Shown here one piece after another: positions 6,072 to 64,000 of a DNA stretch of 64,000 nucleotides. The notes beneath the pieces are model-generated. The model saw nothing but the letters and a program-made list of their open reading frames with translations. It made no database searches and was not told where the DNA came from. Made by a program: the position numbers and the translations under genes. Numbering within the stretch: position 1 is the stretch's first letter; every line of letters begins with the position of its first letter. The stretch lies in assembly GCA_029717555.1 (NCBI GenBank), contig JAMDHS010000033.1, positions 1-64,000 on the forward strand. The letters are read 5' to 3'. Source of the DNA: Peribolospora baueri (taxonomy: Eukaryota).

Positions 6072-6567
6072 ATGGTTTGCCATCATTATTCCCCTCCTCC
6101 CCTTCCTCCTCCTCCCCCGTCCCTCAGGACAACGGCGACGACGACGACGATGATGACCTCGAGGACTATCCGGAGGCAGTGCCGACGCCCTTGGCGACGG
6201 CGAACGGCAACGCCGAAGCCGAAGGCGGAGCGTCGAAAAGGCGCACAGTTCGGGCTCGGCCCCGCGAACGCCGAAAGGCAAAGGGCCTTTCACGAAGGAG
6301 GAGGACGAGCAGATCGCTGATGCCCTCTTCAAGGCCGTCAGCCATTGCGTCTTGGCCGACAGGCTGGGCAGGCCGAAGAGCTCGATGAAGGATCGGTTGA
6401 GCATTCTTAAAAAAGATGCTCAAGCGACGGCGCGACGCAGGGCAGAACAACCCTCAAATTTAGCGTGGCTGGAAGATAGTCAGCAAGCCTCGACCTTACC
6501 CGCCATACCATACCTTTCTCCTCTTCCTCACTTTCTCATGTATCCTGATGCTTCGAATGTATGTTAG
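6072..6567 (+). pseudogene. Myb/SANT-like small protein with an apparent frameshift
   Basis: Frame 1 reads KGPFTKEEDEQIADALFKAVSHCVLADRLGRPKSSMKDRLSIL (Myb-like). The upstream acidic segment DNGDDDDDDDLEDY...EGGASK is in another frame, and the two join at the A-run 6236-6239. Possible intron 6075-6127. Confidence 0.5.
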
Positions 6568-6911
6568 CCTTGGAACAGCCATCGAGCACGCGCCGGAACG
6601 CCGTCCGTTGCCGGAGATCGATACCTCACCGTGCATCACGTGATGTGAACCCCTATGCGCGTTCGGCCCCGACGGGGAGCAACAACATCTACGGTGGATT
6701 CTTTTCGATCAACGACCATCGCGAACAGGATCCTGTCAGGACAGCAAGCAAGACAGCAGGACAGCAGGACAGTAAGACAGTAAGACATCAAGGCACCGAG
6801 GCAGCAAGGCAACAAGACAGCAAGCGAAGGAAGGAGCGGAGGAACTTGGTCACTCCGCCTGCGCCTCCAAAGATACCCCACCCGTGCCCCTGCCCTACTC
6901 ACTCAGCCGCC

Positions 6912-9900
6912 ATGCCCTCGCCGATGGGCTCGCCCGCCGGTCCACGAGCGAGGTCCCCGCTTGGGGCGCGCGGGCGCTCGCCGTCGCCCGTATCGCCCAC
7001 GCCCTCCTCCACCTCGTTTGTCGTTCACAACGTGCGCAGGCAGCCCGGGGGCGTCTCCGCCGACCCCTCCCCCGCCCACTCGCCCGCCGGCTTCTCGTTT
7101 GCGGAGCAACACCAGCAGCTCCAGAGGCGACAGGAGCAGGAGGAGAGGCGAACAGTGGAGAGGCAGCGTCAGCGTCATATCCATCAGGACGCCGGCGGCC
7201 CGAATCAGAGGCGCGGACCTCCCGGTCATCTGCACCACCAAGAGATCGGCGACGACGATGACGATGAGGAGGAGGAGGAGGACGGCGACGATGGCGACGA
7301 GCAGAGCCACCGCCAACGTGCGATGAGCTTCCAAGGCGCTCAGCATCCCAGTGGGATCAGACAAGCCTTGTCGCGGCATGAGGCCCACGTCGAGCGCGGT
7401 AGGTCGCCCACTCGCACCAACAGCGTCGCTTCCATACAACACCGCCAATCAGGCCCTCCTCCCATCGGTCCCCTTGACCTCCCCGAACCGGTTGCCAATC
7501 CGCCCCTCTCTAACCGTTCCCCGGGCGCCTCCCCCAGCCGTGTCTCCTTCCGCGACCTCCCCACCCCCACCCGCACTCCCACCCGCGACGCCGCCTCTCC
7601 ACAGCTCGGCGCCAGTCCCACTCCGTCCGAGTTGGGCTTGTCAGGAAAGCTTGCCGGTGCCATCGGCGGCCTCTTTGGCATGCGCAAGGATAGGAGTAGG
7701 AGCAGGAGCGGAGAGAGGAACGTGGTGTGGAGCATGGGAAGGGAGGGCTCGGACGACAGAGCAAGGTGGGCTACGTCATGGGTTTTCCTTTTTTTCATGC
7801 GCTCAGCTGTCGCTGACGAACCTCATCCTTTCTTCCCTTCAGCCCGCTCGGAATTCCCTTCGATAAGCTGGCGCCCCGCGGAAGCAACGAGGGCGTGTCA
7901 TCTTCCTCTCGTTCCGCTTCTCCCATATCTCCCGGCCCCGGTGGGCGTTCGCCCAAGCGGGAGCGCGACAGGGAATACGAGCATGAGCCCATGCCGCTGG
8001 CCTCCAATCTCGTTCTCAAGCCTTCGGAGGTGGAGCAACGCCCCAACATGACGTTGGCAGAGATCGAGAGAGAAGCCGAGATGCAGCGGGCTCGGACGCG
8101 TCGTCAGGCGCAGGCCATCGTCGACAGGGAACGAGAGGAGGCCATTCGCTCGCCCACACAAAGCCATGGACCGGGGCAGGGCGGGGCGTGGAACCCGAGG
8201 CAAGCTCTGCTGGATGAAGACGAAGACGCCTTCGTGCCGCCCCCGCTTGCCGCCCTTCGAGCTCAACAGGCACAGGCGTTCAGCAGCCGGCGGAAGCCCG
8301 TGCCCCCCTTGGACGAGGACGGACAGGGCAACCCCACAGATCCTTCCGATGGGCTCACCCCGGCTCAGCGCATCGTGCTCCAGGCGAGGAGCCGGGACAG
8401 CTCTCGGGAGCGCAGCCCGGCCAGTTCCCTTCAGGGCCTGAGTCCCGGCCAGATCGTGAACGCTGCCGACGGCGTTGTCACCCCAGCCCGCCAGCCCGTA
8501 GTCCAGCACGGGTTTCACGCCCCTTCTCGGTCACCACAGCAACGATACTCCATGCCCCCCGGCCCGTACGGCCGCGCGACAAGCGACGGCAGCCCCATCT
8601 CCGGCCCCACCACGCCAGGCTCCCAACACGGCGTCGGGGCTTTTCACTCGCCTTCGCCCGCGGGTCAGCCACCTTTCTTTGGGGCCGAGTCTCCATCTCG
8701 ACCGCCTCTGTTCAAGCGCCACAGCGCCCAGCACATCCCTTCCCACGGCGGCGGCTCTCCCAGCCAGATGCCGCCGCCGCACGCCCAGCCGATCACCACG
8801 CTGCCACACGCGATGCACGACCTCGCCAAGCGGTTCTACCGCTTCGAGAGCTACGCCGTGCCCCTGCTTCGTTCGTTTGAGCGGCGCCTTGACGATATAG
8901 AGTGCGACAACAAGGCGGCCTTTGCGGCTGCCTCCATGAGCGACGTCTCGCGCGACCGCAGTGGTAACGGCTTGACCTTGTCCAACTTGCTCCAGGGCCA
9001 GAAGGGGAGGGAGAAAGACAAGGGGAAAGAAAAGCAAAAGGAGGGAGAGTTGGATATGGAGGAGGTGGAGGCAGAGATGGACAGGTGGGTGGCCAAGCTG
9101 GTGGAGATGATGCGGCGCGAGGTGGGGCAGCTGCGTGTGGGATGTGCGGAGCTGGCGAGGGGGAGAGAGACGCTCGGCCGGGTCGCCTTTGGCATCCAGC
9201 GCGGGCAGGTCACCGGTCTGGCGCGCTCGCCTTCGACGAAGTCCAACAGCGCCGTCGGTTCTCCGCCTCAGGCTAGGAAGGACCGTTCGGCGGACGACGG
9301 CCCCAGCCCCGGTCGTCGGGCGCCCGTCGACGGTCGTCGCGCACGCGCAGCCACGTCCCCGTCCCCGGCTGACGTGCCTGGCAAAGGGGACTCGACGTCG
9401 CACAGCCAGGCAGCGTCACAGTCCTCCACGTCCACTTCCGCCCTTGTTGTTCGCGCCAGAGCCGCTCACCAGGCCATGGCAGCTCACCAGGACTTGGCCG
9501 AACCGGACCGTCCGTCTGCCGCCACTCGCCGGGGGGATGGCGGCACAGCGAGATCTGACGGCACGCCCGAGGTGGCACGGACGCACGGACACGGCAAGCG
9601 GAGCACCAACGCGACCACGTCGACCTTGGCCAGCGCCAAACCGGCCCGCGACGGGCATGGCAATGAGGCGTCGGCGGAGACGACGGCGTCCGCTTTTACC
9701 TACCGCTCCCACCGGCGCGAGGCGTCCAAAGGGACTACCCAAGGCGGCACCCAGGCCGCGGGCGCAGCGGAGCCGATGACGCCGAGCCGACGACGCGGCG
9801 GCCACCACGAGAGAGAAAGCTCGACGAGCCCGAGCCCCCGCAAGCGGTACACGAGCGCGTTGAGCGGGGGCATCGTCGAAGGTCGCATCTCGCCCAATCG

Positions 9901-10765
9901 AGAGCCGGGCGCGGCGGCCGCGCCGGGTAAGATGGGGCCGGAAGGGGGCGAAGAGGCGGTGGGCAGGATGGGCAAGGAAGGGCGAGAGCGTCAGCGACGT
10001 CAGTCTACGGGCTCGGCGCTGCTGTCGCCTCCTGCCGCGAGCACTGTCGTGACGGGAGGTGATTCGGAGGTGTCTGGCTCGGCCTACAGTCGACGGCAGT
10101 CTGCGTTTGTGTCGTCGGCCTCGTCTGGCACGGCCTCCACGCCGCCTTCCTCCGTCCATCCCCTCTCAACATCTCCAGCGTCTTCGAGCGCCGCGGACAA
10201 GGACAAGGACAAGCGGATATCCTTCCCTCGCTCCACGTCGCCCTCGTCTTACGCTCCTCCGCCCCTGTCCCCTGGCGGGGCGGCCGTTCTGAACGCTCGT
10301 GCGAGCGCGGGACTGAGGGCGAGGGCGCAGTCTTACCTGCAGCAGACGGACAAGGAGGCTGTGTTGAGCGCGCCTTCGTCTCCTAACACGAAGATTCCCA
10401 CTCCGCGCTCTCCCGTCGGCGGCGGCGGCGGCGGGGGCATGGCGTTCCCCAGGTCGGCCTCGCCTGTCCGATTCTCGCCGACCGCTTCTTCTGCTCTCGT
10501 CTCGTCCCCCGCTCGAAAGACGACCGCGGCGCTGGGCCACCGCCGAGCGCAATCGCAACAGACCGTCGAGGTTGCATCCGCTCCGAGACCGCGGCCGCAG
10601 TCGTCGTACGTGCCTCGATCGTCCACGACGACGTCTGGTGCTGGTGCGGCGCCCGCTGCTGCCGCGGCGATCGGGAATGGCATCGAGGGCGGAGGAGGGA
10701 GAGGCGCCAGGGTGGGTCAGAAGAAGCTTGGTGATCTTGTCAAGTTTTTTGATGGACAGGCGTGA
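6912..10765 (+). CDS. Large uncharacterised Ser/Pro-rich protein with a central helical/coiled-coil segment, 2 exons
   Basis: ATG at 6912; intron 7766-7842 joins exon 1 in frame to the 956-aa ORF; helical block LPHAMHDLAKRFYRFESYAVPLLRSFERRLDDIE. Confidence 0.8.
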
Positions 10766-10987: not shown

Positions 10988-11567
10988 CCCCAGTTCGCCT
11001 GCTGGCGGCTGGTGCCTTGCGCGTGCCCGCGCGTTTTGCTACGATACCCTGCTCGTATGCCCGTCCGTGTACGTACCCTAGCTAGCTTCTTCGCCTTCCC
11101 TGGGCGAGATTGGGAATGGAAGGGGACATGGTCAGGCGGCGGCGTTGTGTGTTGGCGTGAACAACGTCGCCATCATCGATCGAAGTATTCCTTCTTCCGA
11201 AATGAATTCGCCACGTGCGCCGCCCGCGCCTGCGCCCTGCCATCGTCCCGTGCGAGGCGAGACAACAACACTTCCACTTCCACCACCACCACCATCGCCA
11301 TCACCATCATCGCACCGCCGTCAGCGTAGCCTCAGCCTTCCCCGGCGGGCTTCGAGTACCCGAGGTACCCTCCAGGCGGCGCCACGCCCGCGCCCAGCCC
11401 ACCGACGCGGCCAGCCAGCCCCAAGCCCAGCCTCGTCGACACGCCCTCCGACGACCGCCCACACGCAAGCTCTCGCTCAAGCTTGCCTCGCCAAAGCCAA
11501 AGCCAAAGCCAAAGCCTGTCATCGTCGTTTCGCCGAAGCACTTCCGACTCTCAGGGAGAGAAACGCC

Positions 11568-13994
11568 ATGTCGGCCAACCTCACTGTGAGCGTCGCCGTC
11601 CGTCCTCGCCTTCGCAGCGGAACCGTCCCTGCCGGCGCGTGCTTACGTCCATGCTCACGTCTCCCTCCGTCTTCTTCTATCCCTTTGCTCCAGCCTCCCG
11701 CGTCGACCCCTCCTCCCCGCGTGCCCTCTTCCTCAGCCCTCAACGCCTTGCACCAATCGCCTCCGGATGCGATCGCCGCCTCCTCGCCTGCCGGATCGGC
11801 CTACAACATTGGCAATGGCACGCCCAACGGCTCGATGACCAGGACACTCGCCGTGCTCTTGGGTGACGCTGTCGATCAGAGGCTCGCCGTCGAAAGCAGG
11901 TTGAACGAAGCCGGTCAGTCTTGAGGAAGGGTAGATTTCGCTTGAACAGCTCGTCTGACCCCTCGTCTCTTGTTCAGGCTTTGAAATCGTCGCAGACCGC
12001 ATGGAAGAATGGTCCATCGACGACGACGAAGAGTTGCTTTCCGAGTTACTCGCTAGCGAGGCTGACATAGAAGGCTGGGCAGCCGACATGACCGCGGGGC
12101 CGATCATGCTCTATGTGCTCGAACGCCGGCGAGCCGGTGAGCTCTGGAACGATCTCATCGGCCCTCCTGACGACCAAGTGGTCAGCCAGGAAGCACCTCA
12201 AAGGTCAGTCTCCCTGCTCTCGATCCGATCCGGTCGTCGTCATCGGTACGCTCACACGCGCTCTTTTCCCGTTCCACCAGCCTGCGCGCATTGTACGGCG
12301 CCAGGAATCTTTACGGCAGCCCCGTCGGTTTCGCAGAGCTGCAGATCGCCCTCGTTTTCCCCGAGCTGGCCAACGAGGAGGCTCTCCTTGCCCAGGAGCC
12401 TGACTACTTTGACATTCCTCGCAACGTCGAGACGGGCTTGGGTCCAGCTTCCGTCAACTCCGCGTCCGACCGTGGCACCTTCAAGGCCCGGCCCGCTCCT
12501 TCGTCCACACGCAAGCCGTCCATCGAGCCGCGCATGTCGCGGGCGGCAGCGCTCAGGATGGGCATCGAGTTGCCCAAACCGGCTGTAAGGACACAAAGCG
12601 CGTCTTCGGGCACGACATCGCCGGATGAACCCAGACGGGTGGTACCCATCCCAAAGAGCCTGGCTCAGCCATCGGTCGCACCCCGGCCAACGCGCGCGTC
12701 GGCCCTCCGGACGGGCGTTCCGCCAACCGACCCGCCAGCTCGGTCCCGCACCGGATCCACGACCTCCATGGGCTCTCTGGGTTCTGAAGGCTCTGCGAGG
12801 TCACCCACGGCCCTTTTCGATAACGTACCGGGCCACAAGCGACGGGAAAGCATTGCCGTGGCAAGCACCAGGGCGCCGTCGATGGCCCCCAGACAGACCA
12901 AGGCGTCCGCTTTGAGGGCCCAGCGCGATTCCGCCTTGTCGCCGCCTCCGCTCAGTCATCGCACGACGTCCACCGCCTCGGTCGATTCCGCGTCGTCACA
13001 GGCCAGGAGCACCCAGAGGTCCGAGTCTGCGTCGTCGGGCGCCGGTGCCGCTCCCGGTTATGTGAGGGAACGCCGCCAAGTCGACTTCTCCGGCACCCCT
13101 GGCCACAAGAGAGCCGTCAGCTACCAAGTCGCGTCCACCAACGCACCCTCCATCGCCCCTCGGCAGACCAAGGCCTCTGCGCTGCGCGCTGGTAATGTAG
13201 GAGATACCGTTTCTTCTCCACAGCGTCGGTCCGCGGACCGCACAGTCGACTTTTCCAATACTCCCGGCCACAAGAGATCGTCGACGAGCTACCAAGTCGC
13301 GTCCACCAACGCACCCTCCCTCGCCCCCCGGCAGACCAAGGCTTCTGCGCTGCGCGCTGGGAACGGCGGCGGAGACACCGGGGACTCCCCGTCCGGGAGT
13401 GCAGGTAGGCGGGCGTCTGTGGCGACGTCGAGTCCCGTATCCGCCGGCGCCGGCGCCGAACGCAAGACGATCGACTTTTCCAACACGCCGGGACACAAGC
13501 GCGTCGGCAGCTACCAAGTCGCCTCGATTCGTGCGCCTACGATCGCTCCGCGCGCCACCAAAGCCAGTCAGCTTCGAGAATCGAAAGAAGCCGACGGAGG
13601 AGGCGGAGAAGCGCCCCGTCGACCCCAGAGCGTACAGAGTCTTAGGACGGCCGAGCCTAAACCGGGCGATTCGGTGGTCAACTCGGGCCGTCGTTCGAGC
13701 CTCGATGTATCAAGGTCCACCGGTGAGTGTTGAACTACGTCGCATGTGCTCGGAGCAAACCAGACCAGATCAGATCCGAAAAAGAAGGACGAAAGGTTCA
13801 CCGCGTTTCATTTTCGGCTTGTATGTGTAGCAGCTCCCACCATCACCCCTCGGCCGAACCGCGCCGCCCTGCTTCGCGCAGAGAAGGGCGGCGTCCCGAC
13901 ACCCACCGGCACCGGCACCGGCGCCCCTCCTCCCTCCAGCTATCGTTTCTCCGGCTCGTTCGGAGGACGTCCGGCGTCCGCCCAAGGCGTTTGA
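11568..13994 (+). CDS. NDK (nucleoside diphosphate kinase)-fold protein, probably catalytically inactive, with a long repeat-containing basic tail; 5 exons
   Basis: Introns 11586-11693, 11914-11977, 12204-12280 and 13723-13830 all preserve frame. The spliced protein has RTLAVL...LNEAGFEIV...MTAGPIMLYVLER...WNDLIGP...APQSLRALYGARNLYGSP...AELQIALVFP, which matches NDK motifs, followed by PGHKR/PRxTKASALR repeats. Confidence 0.82.
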
Positions 13995-14566
13995 GCGATA
14001 TGATATGATACCCCCCGCCCTCCTTCCTTTTTTTCGATTGAATTGTTTTCTGACCTCCGATGTTGTTCTTTGATCGCGCTGGCCTCGCTCTCTCTCTCCC
14101 CCTCCGTCTTTGTTTGTCACCAATGTCGTCAGGCTTGATGCCGTATACGCCTATCGCAGTCAAGCTGCCCCCCCCCGCGTCGTCCTTCAGGTTCGCTAGC
14201 TGTCCTTCATCTCGCGTTCGATCGGTCGCCCGTCTGTCACTCGTTTGTTTGTCTCTTTGTCTGTCTGTCTGTCTGTTTGTTTGTTTGTTTGTTTGTTGTT
14301 TCACCGCCCCAGCCGCTACTCACTTCTTTGCTTGCTTGCTTGTGCTCTCTCTATCTCGCCGCCTTGTCGCCTCTCTCCTCTTTTACTTTGAAGAAATTTA
14401 AAAGTAGTGTCGACCGAAGAGCGCCTTAACGGACGAAGGAAAAGGGCGCTGCCGCCCGCGGACCTGCGTCGCTCGGCGCATAAAAAGGTATCTCGGATTG
14501 CGGTGCGGAAGGGTAGAATACATTCGTGACATGAAGGACGTGTGTGCGAAGGAACGAAGGGGCGAG

Positions 14567-17373
14567 TCACGACGACACCATGATGGAAGCGCGGATCGCT
14601 TGAGCCCGTGGAATCGGCGCGGCCTGGAACGGCACTCGTTCCGACCTCTCCTTCGGCGGCCGATCGTCGTCATTGGCCAGGGTGATCGATAAGACCGGTG
14701 GCGCGTCCCTGACGACCCCAGGCGGCTGTAGCAACTCTGAATACGAAATGAGAACAAAAAAACGCCAGTTCAAGCAAGTCTGCAAGGTTGTCGCTCTGCC
14801 CGAGTGCACGGGAAAGAGAACTGACTGACCTTGGAGGACGTGGTCGAAGGAAAGCCCAACCTCGGTCAGAGGTTTCGCCAGGTCGCGAGACGTTTGGATG
14901 GCCTCGCGGATCACCCTGGGATCCTGATCTACGCCGTAGACTTGGCGTCGGAACATTTCGGCATAAGCTTCAATTTGCTTCGTCGCCCAGCGCACGAAGC
15001 CTTTTACGAAACGGGAATGAACGCGGGTCAGACAGACAGACGGAGATGTTGTCAGCCCCATGGTGGTGGACTTGCCGTCCAAACCTCACCAGACGCCATC
15101 TTGTTGTCCTTAAACGCGCTCATGTACCACTCGCTCGTATTCTTGATGAGCGTAAAATGGACCAAAGCAAACTCGGAAATGTACAATCCGACATCGCCCT
15201 CAAATTTGATCTGACGCGCCCGTCTTCGAAGCATCTCGCTGCGAGCGTTGAGGAAGATTTCCCGAGCCGCTTCTCCTTGATCGAGTCGAAGGAGGAAGGA
15301 CGCGTTCCGACAGACCGCCGACTTTTTCAGGTTCGGAGATGCCAGGTCGAGGGAGATTGCTGACACCAGATCGGCCGTGCGAGCGGCGAGTTTGGTCTCC
15401 ATGTCCCCGTGGTACGGGTCCGAACTGGGCAGACTGGCCACCCGCGCCTTTCCTACGGGGGTCCATATCGAAGCAGGTCCCCAAGTCGATCAGACACGCA
15501 GAGCCGTCGTTCTATTCGTGGCCGGAATCAAGCGTACGGCTCACCTTGCTCGACCATATGCACCGCCTCCTCCCACTCCCTTAACGCGATTCTGACCGAG
15601 AGGTCGTCGACAAAATCATTAATCCACCGGAGTTCATTGCCCGATTCACCCGGACGGGAACCGACGGAGGCGCTGGAAGACTTGAACGAGCCCGAAGAGC
15701 TGCTGACAAGCCCATCTCCGTTGCTCATGATCTAAAACAAAAGGGGGAACGATTCGCGGACCTTGAGCACGTGATTTCCACTGCCAGACAGAAAGACTTC
15801 CTGACATATGCCTCGTCCTGCTCTGAAGACTCACCCCGCTTTCTCGCTTTCTCGCCTCTGCTTCCGCCAAGCTCTCTTTTCTCCTCTTGTTCGACAGCTC
15901 TTCGGCGACTTTGCGGCAGGCGGCGAGAAGTGCCTTTTTGTCTTCGAATCGCTCGCTTCGGTAAACGAACGTTTCCTTCCCCCGCCTCACCTTTATCGCG
16001 TTGGTCAGATCTGCGCAAAAATGGCATGTTCTATCAGAACCGCGATCAACAGGACGACGTATGCTTTGGGGCATGCCATGAACTGAGAGCTCACCTCCGC
16101 CATCCTTGACGTCGATGACGGCGATCTCAGCCAGGGTAAAACAACGCTCGGCGACGAGCCTGACTTTGCTGCTCATCTGTCTCTTCTTCCTAACGGCGAC
16201 GAGCAACATGTCGTCCAAGAGGTAGAGGCTTACGCCTTGCTTGGGCTTGTACGTGGCCGCGTTGAGTTCGACAAAAGAGGATGCCTCGGCAACGAGATGC
16301 CGACCAGGGACGTAGGGTAGGAATTTCTGACAGCCCTCGATTGACTCCCACAGAGAAGTGATCTGCGCTCGATAAAATGCTTGGAGGTCGAGGATCGACG
16401 AACGGTTGTTCCGCCGGCCTCTGGCGTCGGACAAACCTGCGATGATAAGGCAGAGGTGGGTGAGGATAGCAAAATCCTCAAGCGGACACGGCCATAGAGC
16501 CAAGATCAAGTCGACGACAACTCACCACCCCCGGTGTTGTTAAGCTCGAGCACATGAGGTACGGTCTTCCATTCGGCCAAAAGCTCCTTGAGCTCGAGCA
16601 TGTTGTTCTCGAGGGTGGCAATTTCCTTCGATATGGTAATGAATTCAGCGTAGTTTTTAAACACTTGCCGTTGGAGATCGGTGTTTGTAGCCTCTTTGGA
16701 TTGCTGGAGGGTCTGCTGCAAGGAGCGGAGCGCTGTCTCAGAGTCCATGTCGGGCAACTTCAGGCGCAGATCTGGAGAGCAAGGCGACAGGGACCGATGA
16801 GCACGAGACGTCCTTGGAGATCATAGAAAAACCTCAAGACAGAAAGAAGGAGGTAGACGACGACGCACAAGCTTCGGGATCGAAGGACTCTTTGGAGAGA
16901 AGGTCGACGTCGACTGCTGACACACTTGCCCTTCGTCCGCCAGCGTCGTCCACCCGACCGGCTCCTTCACGATCCTGTCTTACGACTGCCTCATCAAAGT
17001 GCCGTCCTTGCTTTTCCTCCCCATACCCCGCCGCGCCGTGACCAGGCGTCATGCCGAAGCCGGGCTGGACGACCATGCCAGGCTGGAGCGGTGCGGCGGG
17101 GCCGGCGGCAGGCAGAGGCGGCATGGGGGGTGCTTGGCCGTACGCATCGACTGGTATAGGGGCATAGCGCATGGAGAGGCGTTTCTTGAGGTTTGCGCCG
17201 ACCTTTGACTTGCGCGCGTCGGCGGCCTTCTTGGAAAGCTTGGCGGGCCGGGCCTGCTGGCGAGACGCCGGAGCGTGTGCGCCTGCGGGAGGGATGTGGA
17301 CGTCGGCATTATTCTGGTAGAAAGTGGTGGGGCGTGCGCTGCGCAGGCTGACAGCCTGACGTGCGTTGGCCAT
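14567..17373 (-). CDS. EXO84: Exocyst complex component Exo84
   Basis: KKRLSMRY; Vps51-like LQRQVFKNYAEFITISKEIATLEN; PH domain EGCQKFLPYVPGRHLV; C-terminal ARQIKFEGDVGLYISE, FKDNKMASG and AEMFRRQVY; multi-exon. Confidence 0.92.
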
Positions 17374-20735: not shown

Positions 20736-23700
20736 CTAATCGCGAGGGAACCGACAGTGCTTGTCGGCGATGGCAATGACCTTGAAGACGCCCTCGGCCT
20801 TGGCGAAAGTGGTATAAGTGTGCGTCTCCACGTTCGCCACGGTATGCGTCTCCAAGCTGTATCCTTCTGGCCACGAGCGCGTGTAGCTGAACGTGAACGG
20901 TGGCGTGCCTGCAAAGGATATCGGGGCAAAGGTGAGTTGAGATTGGTGGGGTCTGACCGTTCTGAAGCGAATTCCGACAACTCACCTTCAAACTCAAAGA
21001 CGATCTCAGCTTGGTCGCCTGTCAAAAGACAGAACAAGGCCAGGTCAGCGCGGGATTAGAAGCGTGATGAGGGCGGGAGCGAGGAGCGGGACGAACCTTC
21101 TCGAATATTCTCGATGTAATGCCGACCGTGGGAAACCTTCGCTCGAGGCAAAGGATGGACGATTTTGGTGATGTTTGCCATCGACTTGCACTGGTTCCCG
21201 GCGTGCGCGACCGAACGGACTTCGAGGATGCCCGTCTCGTCAGCCACGCGAGAGAAGGTAGGCTCTTTCGCCACTGTGCTGTGTTTTCGGCCATTGAAAG
21301 CGTATTCAACCAGCCACGGACTCGTGCCCTGAAGACTACATACGTGCGCAAATGGCAAAGGAAGATGATGAACACCACATGTTAGTTTGTCCCAGATGGT
21401 CGTATAGTGTGCTTCTGAACTCACGCAAAACTGATATGATCGCCCTGGCAGACGTCTTGATTGAGGTCGAGAGAGGCAATCGAAGCTGTCTCGGCGACGT
21501 CGATTGTGAGGCCGGCCAGCGCGGTATCGTATTCTTTCGCGACACAACCGGTGGCGTCCTGGACGTGCACGACCTCCACCCTCCATAGACCAACGTTGGA
21601 GAAAGTGATCTCGTCCAAATCGAGCGCATACTTCGTCGTCTGAATTCGCTTCCCCTTCACTTGACGTACATTGCCAGATGTTTCGTCGATTACCCTGAAA
21701 TCCACCTCAAACGGCGGAGTACCGGTGAGCTTGAGCATAGGCTCCTTTTTGTCTCGCGCTTGCAGCTTTTCACCCAAGCAGTATTGGGTGCTCCTTCCGG
21801 ACGATTTGAAACTGGCGGTGGGTGCCGCCAACACGGCCTGTTCCAGCAACAGGGGGGGGTCTGCTGGCGAAGTGGTCGGAGCATAGTTGGCGTCGCCAAG
21901 CTGGGTACCGAGCCGATCGAAGGTGAGTAATTAATATCGGTGATGTAGAGCGGTCTCGGGGGAGCCTCCTTACCTTTTCAAACGAGTAGACATGCCAACC
22001 GGCCGTGTCAGTGTAGAGTTGGACATCGGCCGTGTCTTGGGCGGCCTGAAGAGCGATCGGATGCTCATGCCTGGACAAGTACGAAGGTGTTCGGTGTGTT
22101 CGGTGCTTGCCGAGCACGTCGAAAGGCGGACGGCCTGATTCCGAGCACAACACACCATATGCTTGAGCATGAGGCGCTAAGCAGTCAATCCCAAGTTCCT
22201 CAGAGCTCACCGTGAAGCAACAGGGCAACACTATCAGAAGTCCCGACGCAAACGGGAGGCCTGATGACCGATCCATTATGAGCCAAAACTCCTGCATCTT
22301 TCTGCAGCTGCATAGAAGGCCTTGGCTTCACTGCAACTACGTATTTCGACTCTGCGACGATCACATCGCCTGGACAGAACGCATCCTGTCCAGCAAACGA
22401 CATCAGGGTGTTCGATGATATTCTCAGCGATTGTCCCGTATTTTGGCGCAAAATGCCTTCATGTACCCGCCTTACCTTGATTTTGACAAGCTCGTAAAGT
22501 CCAGGTTGGCTGACCCTCAATGCTTCGTTTGGATAATCGACTTTGACCTCGTGAATGGTCTTCGACCCGTTATGCCTGTACGAAAGATTCCACGGCTGTA
22601 CAAAAAGGCCGGCGTTAGTACGAGCTTGACGCCACCAGCACAAACAAGCGCAACGTACTCCTTCACCAGTGAGCCGCAGCGGGAGCCGGGCCCATTCTCC
22701 GTCAAGGATGACAGCCTGGAAGCTCTTGTCGGGCGAATAGAACATGGCCGTCGGATGGTCGCGCTGTACTTCGACTTCCATGTCTGCTTGCGCCAGGGCC
22801 CTTCGGCATCCGCGCGAGTCCTCAATTGCGGCTACGGGTTGTTCGAAACAAAAGTAATTGATAAGATCGTGACACGGTCGATTGTTGCAGCCGATAAGAA
22901 CAACAACAACAACACGTACCCAATGATATGTGGAAATAGCCTCCGTCTTGGGATATCCTCTTGGGAATCGGCACTTCGAGTTGGAAGGGCGAGCTTTGAA
23001 TATTCTCCGCAACGTACGTCTCCGCAACCGAAGCACCGCTGCTAACAGAGTATTCAAGCCGACGCCAAGGACCGGTACCCTTTGCAAGAGAAGGCGCACA
23101 AAACGAGTTCAGCACCTGAGCGTCTTACACGTTCAAGATGGAGAGAACTTCTTACCGTCAGTTCTACATTCGCCTTCACCGTGTCGCCTGAACAGCTGTG
23201 GACCACCGTCTTCTTCTCAGTGAAGGAAGCTGAGGCCAGCGGATGAACGACGACCTTCGTCGACGGGCCCTTCAACTCGATATTATCGTAGTTTGCGTCG
23301 TCAAGACTGAGGAACTCGTAGGTGTACGTCTGGAAGATCGAGGAACAGAACAGGAAACCGAGAATCTGATCAGTCTACTGTTCAGCAGCGCAGTAGGCGA
23401 AGTGTACTCACCCCTTCTTGTTTCTCAAGGAAATCAATCTCATCCCGGAGATGTGTGATGGTCTTGGCTTTTCGTTTGGGCTTTTCACCTTGTCTGTGCG
23501 TACGGTAGTATAGAATGAATGGCTGGAAAGAGAAAATACTTCTCAATGGTGGCGCTCATGAGTCCTGGCTCAATGGAAGGGCTAAACTCACAGGCTCGCC
23601 CGAAAGGGTCGAGATAGCCTTAACACCGATGTTGCCAGCGCATTGGTCGGCGATACCTGTAATAAAAGAATGAAGACATGTCAGGCACGTCCGCTCATCC

Positions 23701-40146: not shown

Positions 40147-40737
40147 AGTCTTCCGGTCGTCCTCTAGGCGGCGGTGTGCAGGAGCATGTGCCCTATTTGG
40201 TCGGTCTCTTTCGCTCCCTCCTTGTCTTTCCATGTCTTCTTCTTTGCCCTTGCCATCGCTCGCTTGTGTCGCCGCGGGCTGGGTTATATGTCGTTTCCTT
40301 TCGGTTGGCGCGGACGCCATGTACGTGTATTATGTACTACTCTCTCATCGACGAGCAGTGAATAGATTTCGGCGCACACGGCTTGGCCTGATACAAGCCG
40401 TCAACTTACGCGCAATACAAAATTTGAAATGCTCCCAGGCACCCGTCGCGATCTCGCACATGGCAACACCGCCAGCCAACCGACAACGACGACTGCGATC
40501 GTCAACACCACCATCGCCCGCCTTTTCCTTTCCCTCGTCCCCATCTTCCCTGCTTCTCCTCTGCCCCACTCGGTTCTCTTTGGGCATAACATCAAAGCCT
40601 GCCCCAAGGCGACCCATCCCCGTTCCTCGAGCCCCTCGCGTCGCCTCTGTGTCCAACCTCGGCCTCAAACGCGTACGGCCGGCTCGAAGCAAGGGAAGTG
40701 AAAAGAAGCCAAGACCCAGCGCTGCAGCTCGTGAGCC

Positions 40738-43700
40738 ATGGCCATCTCTAAGAAGGCTGGCAAGCGTGCCCCTGGAGGCGCGGGCGCCGCACCCAAGGCG
40801 TCCTCCAGGCCCGCCAAGAGGGGCGTCGCAAAGGCTGACTGGAGGGAGGGCTTCAAGAAGCAGCAGGTAGGCGTGACCGATATGACGCTGCTCAGCACCG
40901 TCTCCAACGAGGCCATCAACGATAACCTCAAGAAGAGGTTTGAGAACAGGGAGATCTACGTAAGTCTCCTGCTAACGACCCCGCACCTAGTACCCGCCCA
41001 TCGGACAAGTGCCCTGGCGAGCTCGTCAAGTTCGAGCGCTGACCCAAGTCTCGTGCTGTGTCGCTTCGGCTTTTCGTCCCCGCTTCCTGACTCTGACTAC
41101 CAGACATATATCGGTAACGTGCTCATTTCCGTCAACCCCTTCCGGGACCTGGGCATATACACCGACGAGATCCTCGCCTCGTATCGGGGCAAGAACCGCC
41201 TCGAGATGGCCCCGCACGTCTACGCCATCGCAGAGTCGGCCTACTACAATATGATCGCCTATCACGAGAACCAGTGCGTCATTATTTCCGGAGAGTCAGG
41301 CGCTGGCAAGACCGAGGCAGCCAAGCGCATCATGCAGTACATCGCCGCCGTGTCCGGCGGCTCACATAGCAGCATTCAGGAGATCAAGGAGATGGTCCTC
41401 GCTACCAACCCGCTCTTGGAGAGTTTCGGATGCGCAAAGACCCTGAGGAACAACAACTCTAGTCGACACGTGAGTGAGGATGGAGCGGGATGGGCGCATA
41501 GAAATGATCGTCTTCATTCACCCCATGCTCCGCTGCGCGCCCAACTATCCTTGTTGCCTTCGATATTTGCAGGGGAAATACCTTGAGATTCACTTCAATG
41601 CACAAGGCGAGCCCATCGGTGCCAATATCACCAACTATCTTTTGGAAAAGGTTCGTTCCCCCGATCTCTCCTGTCTGTGGAGCACGCAGCTCACCCCGTT
41701 CCCTTCGGCTTGCAACGAGCAGGGTCGCATCGTGGGCCAGATCCAGGACGAGCGCAACTTTCACATCTTCTACCAGTTCACCAAGGCCGCATCGGTCGCT
41801 CAGCGGGAGACTCTCGGCATCCAGGGACCAGAGGCGTACGCATACACCTCGCAGAGCAATTGCATGGACGTTGAAGGCATCGATGACTCTGCCGATTTCG
41901 CCGAGACGATCGTGCGTGGCCCCTCTTATCTCCTTTTCATTTGGCTGGCGGCCGTCGAGCTGACCGCTGTCTCTCACATTCACAGAAAGCCATGTCCGTC
42001 ATTGGCCTCTCGGAGTCGGAACAGTCAGAGATTTTCCGCATGCTCGCCATCATCCTCTGGCTCGGGAACGTGCAGTTTACAGAGAATGCAGAGGGCAACG
42101 CTGAGATAGCGGACCAGAGCGTGCCAGAGTTCATCGGGTACCTTATGGAGGTCGATGCCGCGGCGGTGAACAAGGCATTGACGCAGAGGGTCATGGAAAC
42201 GCAGAGAGGCGGGCGGCGCGGTGAGTGGTGCGGAATGGCCTGATTGCTCAAGTCAGCACGGGATATTGGCATGCTAAATCGTCTCTTTCGTCCACTCAGG
42301 CTCCATCTACGACGTTCCGCTCAATAATACTCAGGCCACCGCCGTGCGAGACGCCTTGTCCAAGGGCATCTACAACAACTTGTTTGGTGAGTGTAGAGAT
42401 GTTTACTACTCCAATTCGCGCTCACTTGCGTCGGTCCTGACCTGTCATTTACCTGCAGAATGGATCGTGAGCCGCATCAACACCTCCATGTCGTCTCGCC
42501 AGGCCACCGTCAACTCCATCTCCGTCCTCGACATCTACGGCTTCGAGATCTTCGACAACAACTCGTTCGAGCAGCTCTGCATCAACTATGTGGTGGGTTT
42601 CAGTCTCTCGAGCGGATGGTGATGTTGGCTAAGCGATGACGGATTTCCGCTGACTGCTCGTCTGTCCTCGATGATGCGCTATTTCCAGAACGAAAAGCTG
42701 CAGCAGATGTGAGTCGTGTCGCGATGGCATCGCTTCAATGCGGTGGGACGCTCATCCGGGGAAATTTCATTCGCCCCCCAACTTGCCGATAGCTTCATCC
42801 AGCTCACTCTCAAGGCCGAGCAGGAAGAGTACGTCCGAGAGCAAATCAAATGGAACAAGATCGACTACTTTGTGAGCTTCCGTTCCCGACTTGCCTCCGT
42901 TAAGCATGGAACGCCGCGTCCGGGATACTGACCACTCCCTCCGATTTTCCGTCTTCCACACCTCTCGCCACTAAACACAGAACAACAAAATCGTTTGTGA
43001 CCTGATCGAAGAGAAGCGGCCTCCCGGCGTCTTCGCCGCCCTTAACGATGCGTGCGCGACCGCGCACGCCGACTCGAGCGCCGCTGACAACTCGTTCGTT
43101 CAGAGGCTCGGCTTCCTCAGCTCCAACCCGCACTTCGAGAGCCGCGGCAGCAAGTTCTTGATCAGACATTGTGAGTGAACGTTTGAAGAGTCAAAGCTCG
43201 AGAAGAGTGTCGCGACTGACTCTCTCGGCATTTTGTCCTCACCCTGCAGACGCTGGAGACGTGTACTATAACATCTCAGGAATGACGGACAAGAACAAGG
43301 ACGCTCTTCTCAAGGACATTCTCGATCTCATCGGCTCGAGCTCCAACCAGTTCCTCCAGTCCCTCTTCCCCGGTCGTCCAGATCCCAACAGCAAGAAGCG
43401 CCCGCCCACCGCCGGCGACCGCATCAAGGCATCCGCTAACGCCCTCGTGGATAGTTTGATGAAGTGCCAACCGAGCTATATTCGGACGATCAAGCCGAAC
43501 CAGGTGCGTTTCTCCTGTGGATCGTTGCACCGGCGATGACCATCACTGATTGAATCCCGCTCCGATACGATGACTTGACGCTTGCAGAACCGTAGCCCGA
43601 CGGAGTACGATACCAAGGCCATCTTGCACCAGATCAAGTATCTCGGACTGTGAGTCTCATCTCGCAGCTCCTTTTTAGGCGCCCGGCGTCGGAAGCTGGC

Positions 43701-51039: not shown

Positions 51040-54000
51040 TCACCCGCCCCCACACTGCTTCTCCGACGTCGCCGCCTTCCCATCCGCTGCTGGAGGCAAC
51101 TCGTCCAAGCGCCTCCTGATCTTATCGAGCCTCGCCTCGATCACGCGCAGCATGTCCTCGATCGCGCGTCTCTCGGCGCCCAAGTCGCCCAGCGGGAGCT
51201 GCTCGACGGCATCGGTCCCGGTCTTGGTCTCGTGGCGCGAGTCAGCCTCGGCACTGGGCAACCCGACGGCCGCGCCGGGTTTCCAGGTGGCTGGTGCAAG
51301 GTAATCTCGAAGCACTTCGCGCACGGCGGCGGCCACGGCTTCAGGGGTCGAGTCGTCTGGCGCCGAATGACGATCGCCGGCGCCGCGAGACGAGGGGGAA
51401 CCGGGGTAGGAGGCGGTACGACCGGGCGTGGTTCGGGAGAGATGGCGTTGGGCGACAGCGGAAGCGGAGCGCGGGTCGGGGCCATCTCTTGCGTCGCGGA
51501 GAGATGTGAAGGTCCAGAGATTGGAGAGAAGGAGGACGAGAACGAGGAGGCCGAGTGCGACGCTGCCAGGACTGACGCCGCCAAGCAGGTCGCCGATCGT
51601 CTCGAGCGCGGCCGAGCCAAAGTCGATGACGGAATCGAGATGAAACGGCAGGCCCAACAGGCCCGCCTTGCGCTCCTTCTCCCTCTCCTTCTCCTTGGCA
51701 GCGTCGGTCGCCTTCTCCTCCTCCTCCTTCGCCTCCTCGTCCCTTGTCACTTCCTCCAACAGCGCAACCTCGTCCTCTCCCTCCTGCTTGAACTCGGACG
51801 GGTGTGCTTTGATGTAGGTGCGCATTTCCCGCTCCAGATCTCCGTGATATTGCTTTTGACCGTCGATCGAGGCCTTTTCGATGATCCCTGCGAATAAGCC
51901 AAGGTCGACATCAGCTCCATCGGCATGTGCTCGCGCGGACACGGGCGGACGGAGAACGAGAGACAAAGGAGGGCGGGCGAGACGCACCTTTGATCATACT
52001 CCTCCCTGTCCAAGCGACCTCGGCGGTGACGAGCACCTTGGTACTGTTCCCGCCAGCCCACATGACGCACGTCTGCGTCTTGACGGAGAAGCTCGACCCG
52101 CTCGGAACGTCAGGGGTACGAGTGGTGGTTATGTTGGAAATGTAGTTGTCAAAATCGACGTGCGAGTTCTCGTCGCTGATCAAACACTTGGTCTGCTTGG
52201 GGCCAAAGCTGCCCGTGAGCGGTTTGATGTAGGACATGGTGCGGGTGAGCATGTTGTTGTTCTTGGGGTCGGGCGACCACTCGGAAATTTGCAGATCTGT
52301 GGTCGCGGGACCGAGGGGGGGCACGCGTCCGGCCAAGGCCAAGGCAGGATCAGTCAACGTCGACCTGTAAAAAAGACCATGACGAAGCATACCCGCTGAC
52401 CGACCGACTCACCCAACAACTTCTGGCTGACCGTCATAAAGTCCTTGATGAAGCCACTGGTGAACATGAGGTTATAGATCTTCTCCGGCGTGCTAGGGAA
52501 GGTGGCCGTCATGATCTCGGCAGCGTAGTGTTTTTGACAGGCGCACTTCGTAGGCCTATGCGGAGCCTGCTTGGTCGAGGCGCCGGACGAACCGCGCGGG
52601 GTGGGGTCCCTGGCGACTTTGCCGTTGACATCGACGGAGCGAGCGTCGGCGACGCCCTCCCACTCGGGCTGGCCCTTCTCGCCTCGGAGCTTGCGGCGGA
52701 GCAATGAGCGCTTGGAGGCTTTGGAAGTGTCGGGAAGGGCACTGGACGGGGGTACGCCGGCCTCGGAGCCCGCGACGGAGGGGCGCTGACTTTCGTCTCC
52801 AGAGTCAAAATCTTCCTCCGAAAGGACGTCTCCCGAAGAGACAGGCACGCCAGGATGAGAGAGGCGCCAGATGTTGACGATCAGGTCGTAGGTCGAGTCC
52901 CGAGAGAGGAAGGAGGTGAAAATGTACTGGGGGGAAGGGTCGAAAGGAAGAAGACGGTTCGGCATGGGCCATCGACGATCCATCGTCGAACTGGGACTCA
53001 CCTCCTCGCTCCGCGTCTGAATGCGGATGGCATTGGGAATGATCATGGCTGTCGTCTTCTTCTCGATGGACGCAATCTCGGAGAAAGGTATGACGGCCTG
53101 CCAAGGTCCGAAAGCGCGCACGAAAACCGAGCCATCGGTCGGTCGGGAGGAAGGAAGGGTGAGCGCAGACACCGAGGGCGGACGAGACGCGAGATGCGAC
53201 CCATTCGGACTGCTCACCGTGTTGACCCAACCGAACAAGTTGGCGTTGAAACACATGTGATTCTCGGAGATGTAAATCCTGCCCTGGATGAGGATCTCGC
53301 GCTGCCAGGCGCATCCATAGTCTGCCAAATGAAACGAATCGGTCGTCAGCACCAGCACCGACTCGGCGACGTACGCCGGTCCATCCTACGTCATCACAAT
53401 TACCAGGAGCGGTAGTAGGAGCCATATGCCCAGCCGCAAGTTCAACTCACCCTCGATGAGATAATCGTCCTCGGGTACGCGGGGGAACATTTGATGAAAC
53501 TCGGCGTTCCTCTTCGAGCTCGCGACGGCAAAGCCAGTGATCTGACCCCCATCGCCGAGTAGGCTGTTAGGGTCCAGCAGGTCACTGTCTGCGCTGGCGA
53601 GGGTGCCGTAGCTCATGTCGCTCGCGTCGCTCGGCTGTCGTCCCCTGTTTCCCAGGTGAACGTGCCCGTCATTGCTGGGGCGACCGCCAGAAATGCTCGC
53701 CGTGCTCGACAACGTTGCGACGTCGAACGCAGGATGGGGGGTCGCGAGCGCCATGCCAGACACGGCGAGCGCCGAAGCGATGCCACCCGAACCGCCCTTT
53801 CCTGACGAGCTCTTGCGGCGGGTGCGATCGGAAGAGGCGTTGATGTCGGAGAGGCGCGAGAGGGAGCGCTGTGAGTGAAGTCTCCGACCGTTGGCGTTGC
53901 CGGAAGACGGGCCTAGGGGAAGGCTGGCCGTCGCTGGCGGGGCAAGGAGGCTTGCGCCGCCGGGCTTGGGCTGGGGGGAGTGGCTGGAGGAGGCGGTCAT

Positions 54001-57577: not shown

Positions 57578-58501
57578 TCACTTCTTCTGGCCCTTGGCCG
57601 CCGCGGCCTGAGCCTTGACGACGCGCTTGACGATCTTTGCCTCCTCGACCAGGAAAGCGCGGATGATACTGCGAAGAGGACATGAACGAAAACGGGAACC
57701 CCACCGGTCAGAGCGGGTCCACAGGCAATCCATCGAGCCATCCATCACTCACCGCGACCTGACACAGGTGGCGCACCGAGAGCCACCGTACGCGCGCTGG
57801 ACGCTCTTGACGCGCTTGGACACCTGGGCGTACTCGCGCGGGCGGAGGGCGGGGATCTGAGAAGAGGGACGAGAAGAGCAACCGAGGGAGCGGTAAGCGT
57901 CGATCGAAGGGGTGTCGGAAGGAAACGTTCAGGGCCGCTCGACGGCGACCACGCCTCTAAAGACACACTCACGCCGGGCAAGGGAGTGTGGCAGTCACCG
58001 CACTTGGGCTGGCCAGCCTGCTTCTTAATGTGCAGGTAGCGGAGCTTGCCGCCGGGCGTCTTGATGACCCGACGGCGGTTGGACCGCGTGTTGTAGGGGT
58101 TGCGCTTGCGGAGGGTCACACGCTGGGCCCTGTTTTGCGGGTTGATAGGAAGGAGAGGAGAGAACGCCGTCAATAGGATGCGCAAGGGATGGCCGTCGAA
58201 CCTCGTTTGTCCCGGCCGCCCCTCGTCCATCACCCGACAACCGAGAAGCCCTCGTCGTCGCTCGTCGCCGTACGCCTTCGCCCCACGTCCTCGCCAGACA
58301 ACGCCCTCGCGCCCCCATGACCACGCCTGGCGGGCCCTGTTCGTCCTACATCCTCGCGCTACACTCGCTCGCCCGCTCCACCGACGGACGGACCGCCCGC
58401 ACGCACGCCCGCCCGCCCTTGCAAGTTCGCCACCCCGGTCTGCCAACGAGGAAAGAAACGACCCGAGTCGAACCGTCGCGCCGGGCGACGAATGCTCACA
58501 T
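57578..58501 (-). CDS. RPL34: 60S ribosomal protein L34 (eL34), 4 exons
   Basis: AQRVTLRKRNPYNTRSNRRRVIKTPGG; PKCGDC; RAYGGSRCATCVR; IIRAFLVEE; the start codon is split AT|G by intron 58499-58130. Confidence 0.95.
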
Positions 58502-58594
58502 TTTGACGTTTGCTGTAAGGAATTGCCGGGATCGATGGAAGAGACGGAGGGGAAGGAATTGGGCGGTGAAGCGGTTCAGAACGGACGACGAACA

Positions 58595-63061: not shown

Positions 63062-64000
63062 TCACATGGTCTTGAAGATGTACAAGCCGACGAGGGCGAC
63101 GCTGTAGCCAAAGATCTGCAGCGGCGTGATGGTGCTGCCGAGGAGGATGACAGAGGAGACGATGAGCAGAATGTCCTTGAATACGCCTGCCAGGGTGAGC
63201 GTCTAACAAACAAAAAAAAAAAAGGAAAAGTCAGCGATTCATGCGAGCGACCGTAGTCCTTGCGCCCCGACCGCCCGCCCGCTCACCAAACTGCTCGCGG
63301 CACCGATCAAGAAGACGGAAGCGACGTTGAGTCCAAAGGCGACGGAAGCGTTGGAGATGAGGACAAACGGGCCGAGCTTGGAGAGGTCGAGGAACGGCGC
63401 CCATCCTTCGGTGAAGGGGATCAGGAGCGAGTTGATGCCGGCGCAGACCTGTGGGGTCATACAGATGACGATGAGCAGGTGGACACTCGCGGCGCGGCGA
63501 CGAGACGGGAGACTCACCGGAGCGAAGTAGTAGAGGGAGACCTGCGCAGTTGGGTCGGCGGTGAGCGTTGGGACGAACGGCGTGCTGGGACAGACGGCGG
63601 ACGGCGGACGGCGGACTCACCAAAGGGTCCATCTTGAGTCCTTGCAACAAGACCTGAATCATGACGAGCCTACTCGACTCAAAGGCGATCGCGAGGACCT
63701 GGTAGACGAATCCTTCGAGGACAAACTCGAGTTCTCCGTAGGAGGCGATGGAGACGCCGGAGGAGATGAGGATGACGACCCAGAGCAGCTGTGGGTTTGC
63801 GTCCTTGAGCTTGAAGACGAAGGAGATGAGCAGGACGGCGACGGGGGTGAAGGCCTTGAGCATCTGAATAAAGGACACGCTCAAGGTGAGGTAGGCCATG
63901 TTGCTGAAGACGAGGGAGCCGGAGAAGAGGGCGCCGATGGGGAGGATGTTCTTGTACCACCTCTCCCACGTCATCTCCACGTCGTTCAGACCGTCGAGGA
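63062..64000 (-). CDS. Triose-phosphate/nucleotide-sugar transporter family protein; 5' part outside the window
   Basis: ILPIGALFSGSLVFSNMAYLTLSVSFIQMLKAFTPV; MDPLVSLYYFAPVC; AFGLNVASVFLIG; TLAGVFKDILL; the stop is either TGA at 63062-63064 or in a further short exon. Confidence 0.9.

Follow-up and report, generated by a model that had tools for sequence, protein, structure and literature searches.

The DNA considered here, called the window below, is a stretch of 64,000 nucleotides (nt) from Peribolospora baueri (contig JAMDHS010000033.1 of assembly GCA_029717555.1, positions 1 to 64,000 of the forward strand). Its gene of interest, at 11568-13994, is predicted to encode a protein in which a head resembling nucleoside diphosphate kinase (NDK) is followed by a long, basic and disordered tail that carries seven copies of a bipartite motif. 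As judged from sequence comparison, the repeats define a family that is real, conserved and uncharacterised, and that is so far known only from Basidiomycota. The reading preferred here, held at a probability of roughly 0.4 and drawn by analogy with known systems, is that the protein, multivalent and basic, would associate with microtubules in mitosis through repeats that bind their surface, a dead group-II NDK head being an accessory module. The gene has the following predicted features, all on the forward (+) strand; lengths are in nt or amino acids (aa), and helices are those of an AlphaFold2 (AF2) model of P0001, the 480-aa translated fragment of exon 4 (window 12282-13721), with the predicted local distance difference test (pLDDT) as its confidence score.

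11568..13994, +: whole gene, five predicted exons, predicted product of 689 aa, stop codon TGA at 13992-13994
11568-11585, 11694-11913, 11978-12203, 12281-13722 and 13831-13994, +: predicted exons 1 to 5
11838..12386, +: NDK-like head, aa ~55-190, split by introns 2 and 3, with Tyr at the position of the catalytic His (NLYGS)
12480..12557, +: unit 1, FKARP, 11 residues, then PRMSRAAALR; predicted helix at 87-92, pLDDT of the block 73-85
12639..12710, +: unit 2, a half unit (VPIPKSLAQPSVAPRPTRASALR) lacking PGHKR; predicted helix at 138-143
12816..12917, +: unit 3, full, F-D-N-V-PGHKR ... PRQTKASALR; predicted helix at 207-216
13086..13187, +: unit 4, full, F-S-G-T-PGHKR ... PRQTKASALR; predicted helix at 297-302
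13251..13355, +: unit 5, full, F-S-N-T-PGHKR ... PRQTKASALR; 94-95% DNA identity to unit 4; no helix of at least four residues in the model
13476..13577, +: unit 6, full, F-S-N-T-PGHKR ... PRATKASQLR; predicted helix at 427-435
13833..13877, +: unit 7, a half unit in the last exon (APTITPRPNRAALLR)
13923..13949, +: C-terminal motif APPPSSYRF, shared with Tilletia (AAPPSSYRM) and Meira (APPSSFRV)

The gene lies in a GC-rich, eukaryotic region of the + strand. Every predicted intron has GT..AG borders, and the spliced model of 689 aa is colinear with orthologues over all exon joints. The APPPSSYRF of the last exon is matched by APPSS[YF]R close to the C-termini of the orthologues from Tilletia and Meira, and the Agaricomycete consensus holds a PPSSF counterpart. 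Among sequencing runs, the stretch was found in four DNA runs of one study, two of which may be its source, and in no RNA run. A closely related organism from the same sequencing study differs from the window by 40 substitutions and three indels over 2601 nt (window 11500-14100). Of the substitutions, 27 fall in the 2070 nt that are coding and 13 in the 531 nt that are not, and the indels (2 nt at 12253 in intron 3, 1 nt at 13822 in intron 4, and an added T at 14027 in the 3' untranslated region) leave the exons of the gene untouched. Because the spliced model is colinear with orthologues, the C-terminal motif finds its match, and the relative's indels are confined to introns and the 3' untranslated region, the last exon (13831-13994), whose translation is P0003 (window 13833-13991), is by these comparisons real.

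The four occurrences of PGHKR begin at P0001 residues 183, 273, 328 and 403, corresponding to window positions 12828, 13098, 13263 and 13488, which is where an earlier note, made from the DNA letters alone, had placed four full units. The same note had counted seven copies of a half-motif with the last in the final exon, and this count also holds: PRxx[KR]A[SA]xLR occurs six times in exon 4 (P0001 residues 83, 134, 203, 293, 349 and 423) and once in the last exon (P0003 residue 6, window 13848-13877), this terminal half unit being kept in orthologues. In units 3-6 the full pattern reads F-x-[NG]-[VT]-PGHKR, about 15 residues, and then P-S-[ILM]-A-P-R-x-T-K-A-S-x-L-R, which is a version of the family motif F-x-[NG]-[VT]-P-G-H-K-R, about 15 residues, P-x-[IV]-x-P-R-x-[TN]-[KR]-[AS]-[AS]-x-L-R. 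Unit 1 reads F-K-A-R-P where later units read F-x-N-V-P, and its residues that are near-invariant in the family are, in P0001 numbering, F67, A69, P73, P79, P83, R84, A88, A89, L91 and R92. With a conserved core of about 24-34 aa and half-motifs standing 51-90 aa apart, the note's description of an array of ~30-aa repeats fits the core in length, while the arrangement is better termed seven spaced copies of a bipartite linear motif. Ahead of PGHKR, the residues at window 13073-13095, 13238-13260 and 13463-13485 read [RK]-x-[VI]-D-F, as they do in other members from Ustilaginomycotina.

These repeats are beyond chance. Among 20000 shuffles of the 473-aa tail, at least one half-motif arose in 4 and at least one PGHKR in 2, against the seven and four observed. 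Since the unit copies are 62-95% identical in DNA, with just one close pair, units 4 and 5 (94-95%), the array is, by sequence, old and diverged, with no recent tandem duplication; the number of units is identical in the closely related organism. The tail itself has a pI of 11.75, with 70 Lys and Arg residues against 29 Asp and Glu, and is composed largely of Ser (16%), Ala (14%), Arg (11%), Pro (11%), Gly (9%) and Thr (9%). Modelled by AF2 with the family alignment, P0001 has a mean pLDDT of 56 and its tail is coil, interrupted by short helices at five of the six half-motifs and with block pLDDT values of 73-85 at units 1-2. The model of the Meira orthologue repeats this coil-plus-helix arrangement, with all five of its half-motifs helical. 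As far as such models go, linear motifs that become ordered on meeting a partner should look like this, coil with short helices at the half-motifs. The original proposal that an NDK-like head precedes a basic, disordered tail with the repeats in it holds.

Across the family, the conservation of the units is extensive, where a lack of it in orthologues had been named beforehand as a ground for rejecting the proposal. A search with P0001 scored 8000 candidates and retrieved 345 proteins at E≤1e-3. Within the best 120 of these 345, at least one half-motif is present in 117 and at least one PGH[KR]R in 119, and all those named by organism are basidiomycete; their genera include Tilletia, Meira, Microstroma, Ustilago, Sporisorium, Rhodosporidiobolus, Atractiella, Puccinia, Tulasnella, Polyporus, Coprinopsis and Mycena, which are taken here to belong to Basidiomycota. 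The profile search of proteins that the earlier note had called for was made with a unit profile of 46 positions (A2), built solely from the seven units of the window and scored against 1.84 billion representatives. At E≤1e-3 it matched 249 clusters, of which 193 remained at ≤1e-10 and 72 at ≤1e-30; the best 150 of the 249 belong to the same family by motif content, and every match among them that carries an organism name comes from Basidiomycota. The motifs are conserved across three subphyla of that phylum. A local hidden Markov model (HMM) of the unit finds two to seven units per head-bearing protein, with a mode of four (81/138), and in Agaricomycetes the units are spaced about 55-60 aa apart. 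In a 79-sequence alignment (A4), the tail units hold 11 of the 12 columns that are invariant, and columns that are at least 90% conserved number 40 of 385 in the tail versus 8 of 141 in the head. The coding sequences of the window and the closely related organism differ by 12 synonymous and 15 non-synonymous changes, of which 14 of the latter fall outside the units and the remaining one alters the first Pro of PSIEPR, leaving PGHKR and PRxxKAxxLR untouched.

Given the compositional bias and predominant disorder of the tail, one could take the repeats for neutral, functionless sequence of low complexity or for an artefact of reading open frames. However, the motifs are kept across three basidiomycete subphyla and are invariant while the linkers vary, shuffled tails almost never give the motif, and the indels of the relative avoid coding exons. 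Judged by the conservation seen in these sequences, that explanation is already refuted, and its likelihood is put at practically nil.

The claim that the tail belongs to no described system also stands, in that neither Pfam nor the PDB nor the literature, among the sources searched, yielded a characterised family or a paper that covers it. Pfam returned no family for P0001 at E≤1; it found 22 families at E≤10 in 71 family members, none relevant to the tail, and the tail was likewise without a relevant family in scans of 26 relatives at E≤0.01 and of 30 relatives at E≤10. Sequence-profile searches of the PDB with the unit alignment A2 and an alignment of the head-less members described below (A3) gave no matches at E≤10, a feature search of the ESM Atlas with tail residues 60-440 gave no usable match, and a literature search with the motif PGHKR returned, as judged by titles and abstracts, nothing concerning this protein. 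Family members are annotated as 'hypothetical protein' or 'nucleoside diphosphate kinase' only. What is new, then, is a widespread family that is undescribed in the sources searched and a motif pair without a curated model, in an architecture that resembles repeat proteins of the TPX2 and tau type combined with tailed group-II NDKs.

The head has a confidently predicted NDK fold. Exon 3 on its own scores E 0.0063 against the Pfam NDK family (16.8 bits, under the cut-off of 27), whereas PF00334 is matched by 49 of the 71 family members, with a best E of 1.5e-18. When the family profile was compared with solved structures, NME5 (8j07_X, 1.3e-23), NME7 (7ung_5, 2.7e-23) and TXNDC6 all ranked ahead of classical NDKs. 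The AF2 head of the Meira orthologue has the NDK fold with pLDDT of 88-98 over residues 11-150, and its six best Foldseek matches all come from axonemal or radial-spoke entries, with three of the six chains named NME5 or RSP23. Together, sequence profiles and predicted structure assign the head to the NDK fold and place its nearest relatives among the group-II NDKs (NME5/RSP23 and NME7), not among the classical hexameric enzymes. NDKs work via a phosphohistidine, H118 of human NME1, in a ping-pong mechanism, according to PMC13256974. In the corresponding column of the family, His is found in none of the 71 sequences; the 68 accounted for show Tyr in 36, Met in 21, Phe in 4, Ile in 2, Leu in 1 and a gap in 4. 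Because NDKs need the phosphohistidine and the family column is without His, the head is, on this alignment, a pseudo-enzyme. The oligomeric NDK head supposed at the outset is better described as a pseudo-enzyme of group-II kinship, and its oligomeric state as an assumption. At E≤10, the Pfam scan of the 71 members returned 22 families, which include neither a DM10 domain nor a second NDK domain. Right after the head, residues 166-194 of the Meira protein (P0010) form a small beta-rich element (DDDIVYDEKGQAFDAHNGEPLEL-like) with a predicted pLDDT of 68-89, and a similar stretch occurs in the Tilletia protein (P0009); the counterpart in the window protein is short (EPDYFDIPRNVE).

Further information on the roles of the two parts comes from Tremellomycetes. 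The unit-profile matches that lack a PGHKR-type N-terminal context are from this group, namely Kwoniella, Cryptococcus, Naematelia, Cryptotrichosporon, Cutaneotrichosporon and Tremella. In all 28 Tremellomycete relatives examined, two to six units are present and the head HMM finds no match. In place of an NDK head, the N-termini of P0191, P0193, P0205, P0215, P0316 and others (alignment A3) carry the conserved motif SLTSxDVKxDPILSxLAxKQ, followed by a first unit of the FKA[RK]P type and later units of the P-G-Y-K-R type. Because all 28 are without the head yet retain units, the tail repeats are, as far as sequence tells, the conserved functional core of the family and the head is dispensable; therefore, an oligomeric head cannot be essential to what the repeats do. 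Members from Kwoniella also have two to three extra charged helical inserts (NKEKGR..REERRK), followed by half units of the V-K-Q-N-K-T-S-A-L-R type.

These observations bear directly on the idea that the protein is an active NDK, with a tail that does no more than direct local NTP synthesis to some structure. In its favour are the confident NDK fold of the head and the name 'nucleoside diphosphate kinase' that some databases give to members. That annotation is, however, misleading: the phosphohistidine residue is absent in all 71 sequences, the head is missing from 28 of 28 Tremellomycete relatives, and the tail is better conserved than the head. An active enzyme is accordingly regarded as very improbable.

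Comparison with known microtubule-associated systems gives the preferred, microtubule-binding reading its shape. The C-terminal repeats of TPX2 (the FKARP-containing alpha3-alpha6 domains) may be alike in plan, in that both would be tandem units of ~50-60 aa in a basic protein without a globular fold, each with a helical element and an extended segment of the F-K-A-R-P type; unit 1 of the window protein is an exact FKARP, and the Cryptococcus relative of the family is expressed in mitotic phase. In contrast, the helices of the family are only 6-10 residues long, and the family has an NDK head, which TPX2 lacks. TPX2 repeats are ~50 aa in length with a helix in the first half of each (PMC5080731), and FKARP is the name of a motif placed after the helix of four TPX2 repeat domains, whose mutation abolishes branching nucleation (PMC5379942). 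Of 327 family sequences, 170 contain F[KR]A[RKQ]P, in 132 cases 16 residues ahead of the first PR. Two Kwoniella members bear the UniRef label 'TPX2 C-terminal domain-containing protein', but this name did not emerge from the Pfam scans, and a search with the charged-helix inserts of a Kwoniella protein found 12 Kwoniella proteins only and no TPX2 proteins. A literature search pairing TPX2 with fungal names was uninformative, a paper found by pairing it with Basidiomycota was irrelevant, the term there being an accession number, and PMC2777172 does not mention fungi. On this sequence evidence, homology to TPX2 should be treated as a lead, not as a result.

The resemblance to tau, MAP2 and MAP4 that had been suggested from the DNA is partly upheld. 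In both, short, basic repeats that contain Pro and Gly occupy a disordered stretch and would bind multivalently. However, the Pfam scans match no tau/MAP profile, and the units of the family stand 51-90 aa apart, whereas tau-type units abut at 31-32 aa. PGGG is the signature of the tau/MAP repeat, and the family has PGHKR in its place.

For the head, the pertinent comparison is with group-II NDKs. An NDK domain followed by a long tail is found both in RSP23 and in the family; NME5/RSP23 is a radial spoke protein, and NME7 is both an inner protein of doublet microtubules and a constituent of gamma-TuRC, the ring complex of gamma-tubulin. Basidiomycota are non-flagellate. PMC13256974 describes group-II NMEs as microtubule-associated, with NME7 as a gamma-TuRC component, notes that some group-II NDK domains are also catalytically inactive, and gives NME7 an N-terminal DM10 domain plus two tandem NDK domains. 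Unlike NME7, the family has a single NDK domain and, in the Pfam scan of the 71 members, no DM10; the catalytic His is lost throughout the family, and its tail repeats are without counterpart in solved NME chains.

Independent functional hints come from CNAG_04736, the head-less relative in Cryptococcus neoformans H99, which the main texts of the literature searched mention only as a 'hypothetical protein' row in a table of differential expression. In the cell-cycle time series of Kelliher et al. (PMC5137879), CNAG_04736 is one of 1134 periodic genes, ranking 360 of 6182, passing the LS cut-off and changing 16-fold. Its peak order in their Fig. 2B is 581, close to those of KIP1 (564), CDC5 (568), CDC20 (560), cyclin B (549) and SPC98 (600), whereas the S-phase genes CTF4, RFC5 and PSF2 are far off at 937-961. 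The local maxima of its transcript at 30, 100 and 170 min are those of IPL1 and KIP1, while the S-phase genes peak at 10, 70, 140 and 220 min (data of PMC5137879). Pearson correlations (r) computed from the same data at zero lag over 60-230 min were 0.86 with SPC98, 0.80 with BIM1, 0.72 with IPL1, 0.58 with STU2, 0.55 with KIP1, 0.53 with KAR3 and 0.43 with cyclin B, in comparison with -0.21, -0.43 and -0.55 for the S-phase genes RFC5, PSF2 and CTF4. The gene is also listed as present in the Madhani deletion collection (PMC12136443 Table S1). Taken together, the CNAG_04736 data suggest a non-essential G2/M function, which fits an accessory spindle microtubule-associated protein and is no proof of one. 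Three indirect points support the putative binding of microtubules: the FKARP of unit 1, the microtubule-associated relatives of the head, and the periodic CNAG_04736 transcript that peaks with SPC98, BIM1, IPL1 and KIP1.

In outline, the mechanism that a multivalent microtubule-associated protein would entail is as follows. The working part would be the disordered, strongly basic tail with its three to seven spaced bipartite linear motifs, in which each second half is predicted to form a short helix and may fold on binding. The repeats would then engage the acidic microtubule surface multivalently, as TPX2 and tau/MAP2/4 repeats do, so that the protein may stabilise, bundle or help to nucleate spindle microtubules in a non-essential capacity. 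As for the dead NDK head, its part would be an accessory one, in docking or self-association, and not that of an enzyme.

Several observations weigh against this proposal. As to TPX2, the exact FKARP is present in just 74 of 327 family sequences and once per protein, versus four times in TPX2, and in the microtubule-bound model of TPX2 the motif faces away from the lattice and is of unknown role (PMC10284871). Because FKARP faces away from the microtubule in that model, the motif alone does not, by this analogy, imply lattice binding. Pfam TPX2 (PF06886) and TPX2_importin (PF12214) are unmatched in 101 distinct family proteins (71 members and 30 relatives at E≤10), among them the two labelled Kwoniella proteins; a tau/MAP repeat profile is unmatched in P0001 (E≤1), in the 71 members (E≤10) and in the 30 relatives (E≤10); and sequence profiles of the units match nothing in the PDB at E≤10. 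Behind the expression argument stand a relative without a head and a set of markers self-chosen from the mitosis and replication lists of PMC5137879; within the same 60-230 min, r is 0.06 with CDC5 and -0.30 with CDC20, and over all 24 time points it is about 0, because the first-cycle peak of CNAG_04736 is small. Mitotic-phase transcription would equally fit chromatin, nucleolar or cytokinesis roles. CNAG_04736 is non-essential, with 47 gene-body insertions in TN-seq, a transposon-insertion assay (Table S1 of PMC12136443), and no localisation, interaction or phenotype data were found for any family member. Finally, strongly basic tails rich in Ser, Pro and Arg also bind nucleic acids.

The last point leads to an alternative in which the tail is a nucleic-acid- or chromatin-binding module, gripping the DNA or RNA backbone on mitotic chromosomes or in the nucleolus and having its role in chromosome or ribosome biology. 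A pI of 11.75, a richness in S, A, R, P, G and T, disorder with short helices, and invariant residues that are mainly Arg and Pro are all compatible with it, as is G2/M-phase transcription, which chromosome-associated proteins also display. On the other hand, Pfam scans at E≤10 found no nucleic-acid-binding family, the nearest relatives of the head are microtubule-associated NDKs, and, of the chosen markers, a gene of the gamma-tubulin complex and EB1 are the most closely co-expressed at zero lag. In addition, a strictly conserved bipartite motif of 24-34 aa suits a defined protein surface over generic binding to a backbone. Nucleic-acid binding is considered unlikely, albeit with an appreciable chance of being correct.

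The repeats might instead be docking motifs for a folded non-tubulin partner, such as a kinase, a PP1-type phosphatase, an importin or a 14-3-3-like reader, making the protein a multivalent scaffold or a regulated substrate. The units do look, in the models, like short linear motifs that fold on binding; [RK]-x-[VI]-D-F before PGHKR, in the window protein and other Ustilaginomycotina, resembles the RVxF consensus of PP1; and K-R-R-E-S-I in several units resembles basophilic or Aurora-type kinase sites. Yet the units of Agaricomycetes and Pucciniomycotina keep only the Phe of the RVxF-like residues, the invariant residues being instead P, R, G-H-K-R and L-R, and the data found indicate no partner. 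Docking of this kind is rated as rather improbable, though not to be neglected. PP1 docking through RVxF as the main function was rejected, the RVxF-like motif not being conserved outside Ustilaginomycotina, as were SxIP-type EB1-binding motifs, since the units read S-I-A-P and do not fit S-x-I-P.

Returning to microtubules, a more specific and speculative version of the preferred reading can be stated, in which the protein would be a Basidiomycota-specific spindle-assembly factor. In this scenario, a dead NDK of the NME5/NME7 type, kept after loss of the flagellum as an axonemal or gamma-TuRC relic, would be fused to a highly diverged TPX2-like array; PGHKR...PRxTKAxxLR would be a new motif for binding the microtubule lattice; and, together with the gamma-tubulin complex, the protein would function in nucleating or stabilising mitotic microtubules. 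The odds are set well against so detailed a proposal. Whatever probability the readings listed here leave over belongs to something else.

Simple repeats flank the gene, (AAAGCC)n in the region of the 5' untranslated region (window 11487-11516) and (GTCT)n/(GTTT)n past the stop codon (14240-14300). Upstream, at 6549-10765 (+), there are two long overlapping open frames of 500 and 982 aa, rich in Ser, Pro, Ala and Gly, for which a Pfam scan gave nothing at E≤1e-5; they are probably one large, disordered, intron-containing gene. Further genes identified in the window are as follows.

105-1214, -: aspartyl protease
15646-16521, -: Exo84 PH domain
22200-23108, -: POM152 Ig-like domain
40735-41586, +: myosin head
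52354-53385, -: GRAM domain
57745-58575, -: ribosomal protein L34e
63231-63998, -: triose-phosphate-transporter family

These neighbours are ordinary housekeeping genes, and nothing ties them functionally to the gene for the NDK head and repeats.

The family spans mushrooms, rusts, smuts and Cryptococcus. If its repeats bind microtubules, they would constitute a linear motif new among those that bind microtubules; basidiomycetes would then have in this protein a candidate for functions of the TPX2/NME7 type, which have not been identified there so far, and an NDK domain of the ciliary type would have been kept as a pseudo-enzyme in non-flagellate fungi. If they do not bind microtubules, the array would still be a clean case of a deeply conserved, multivalent set of motifs.

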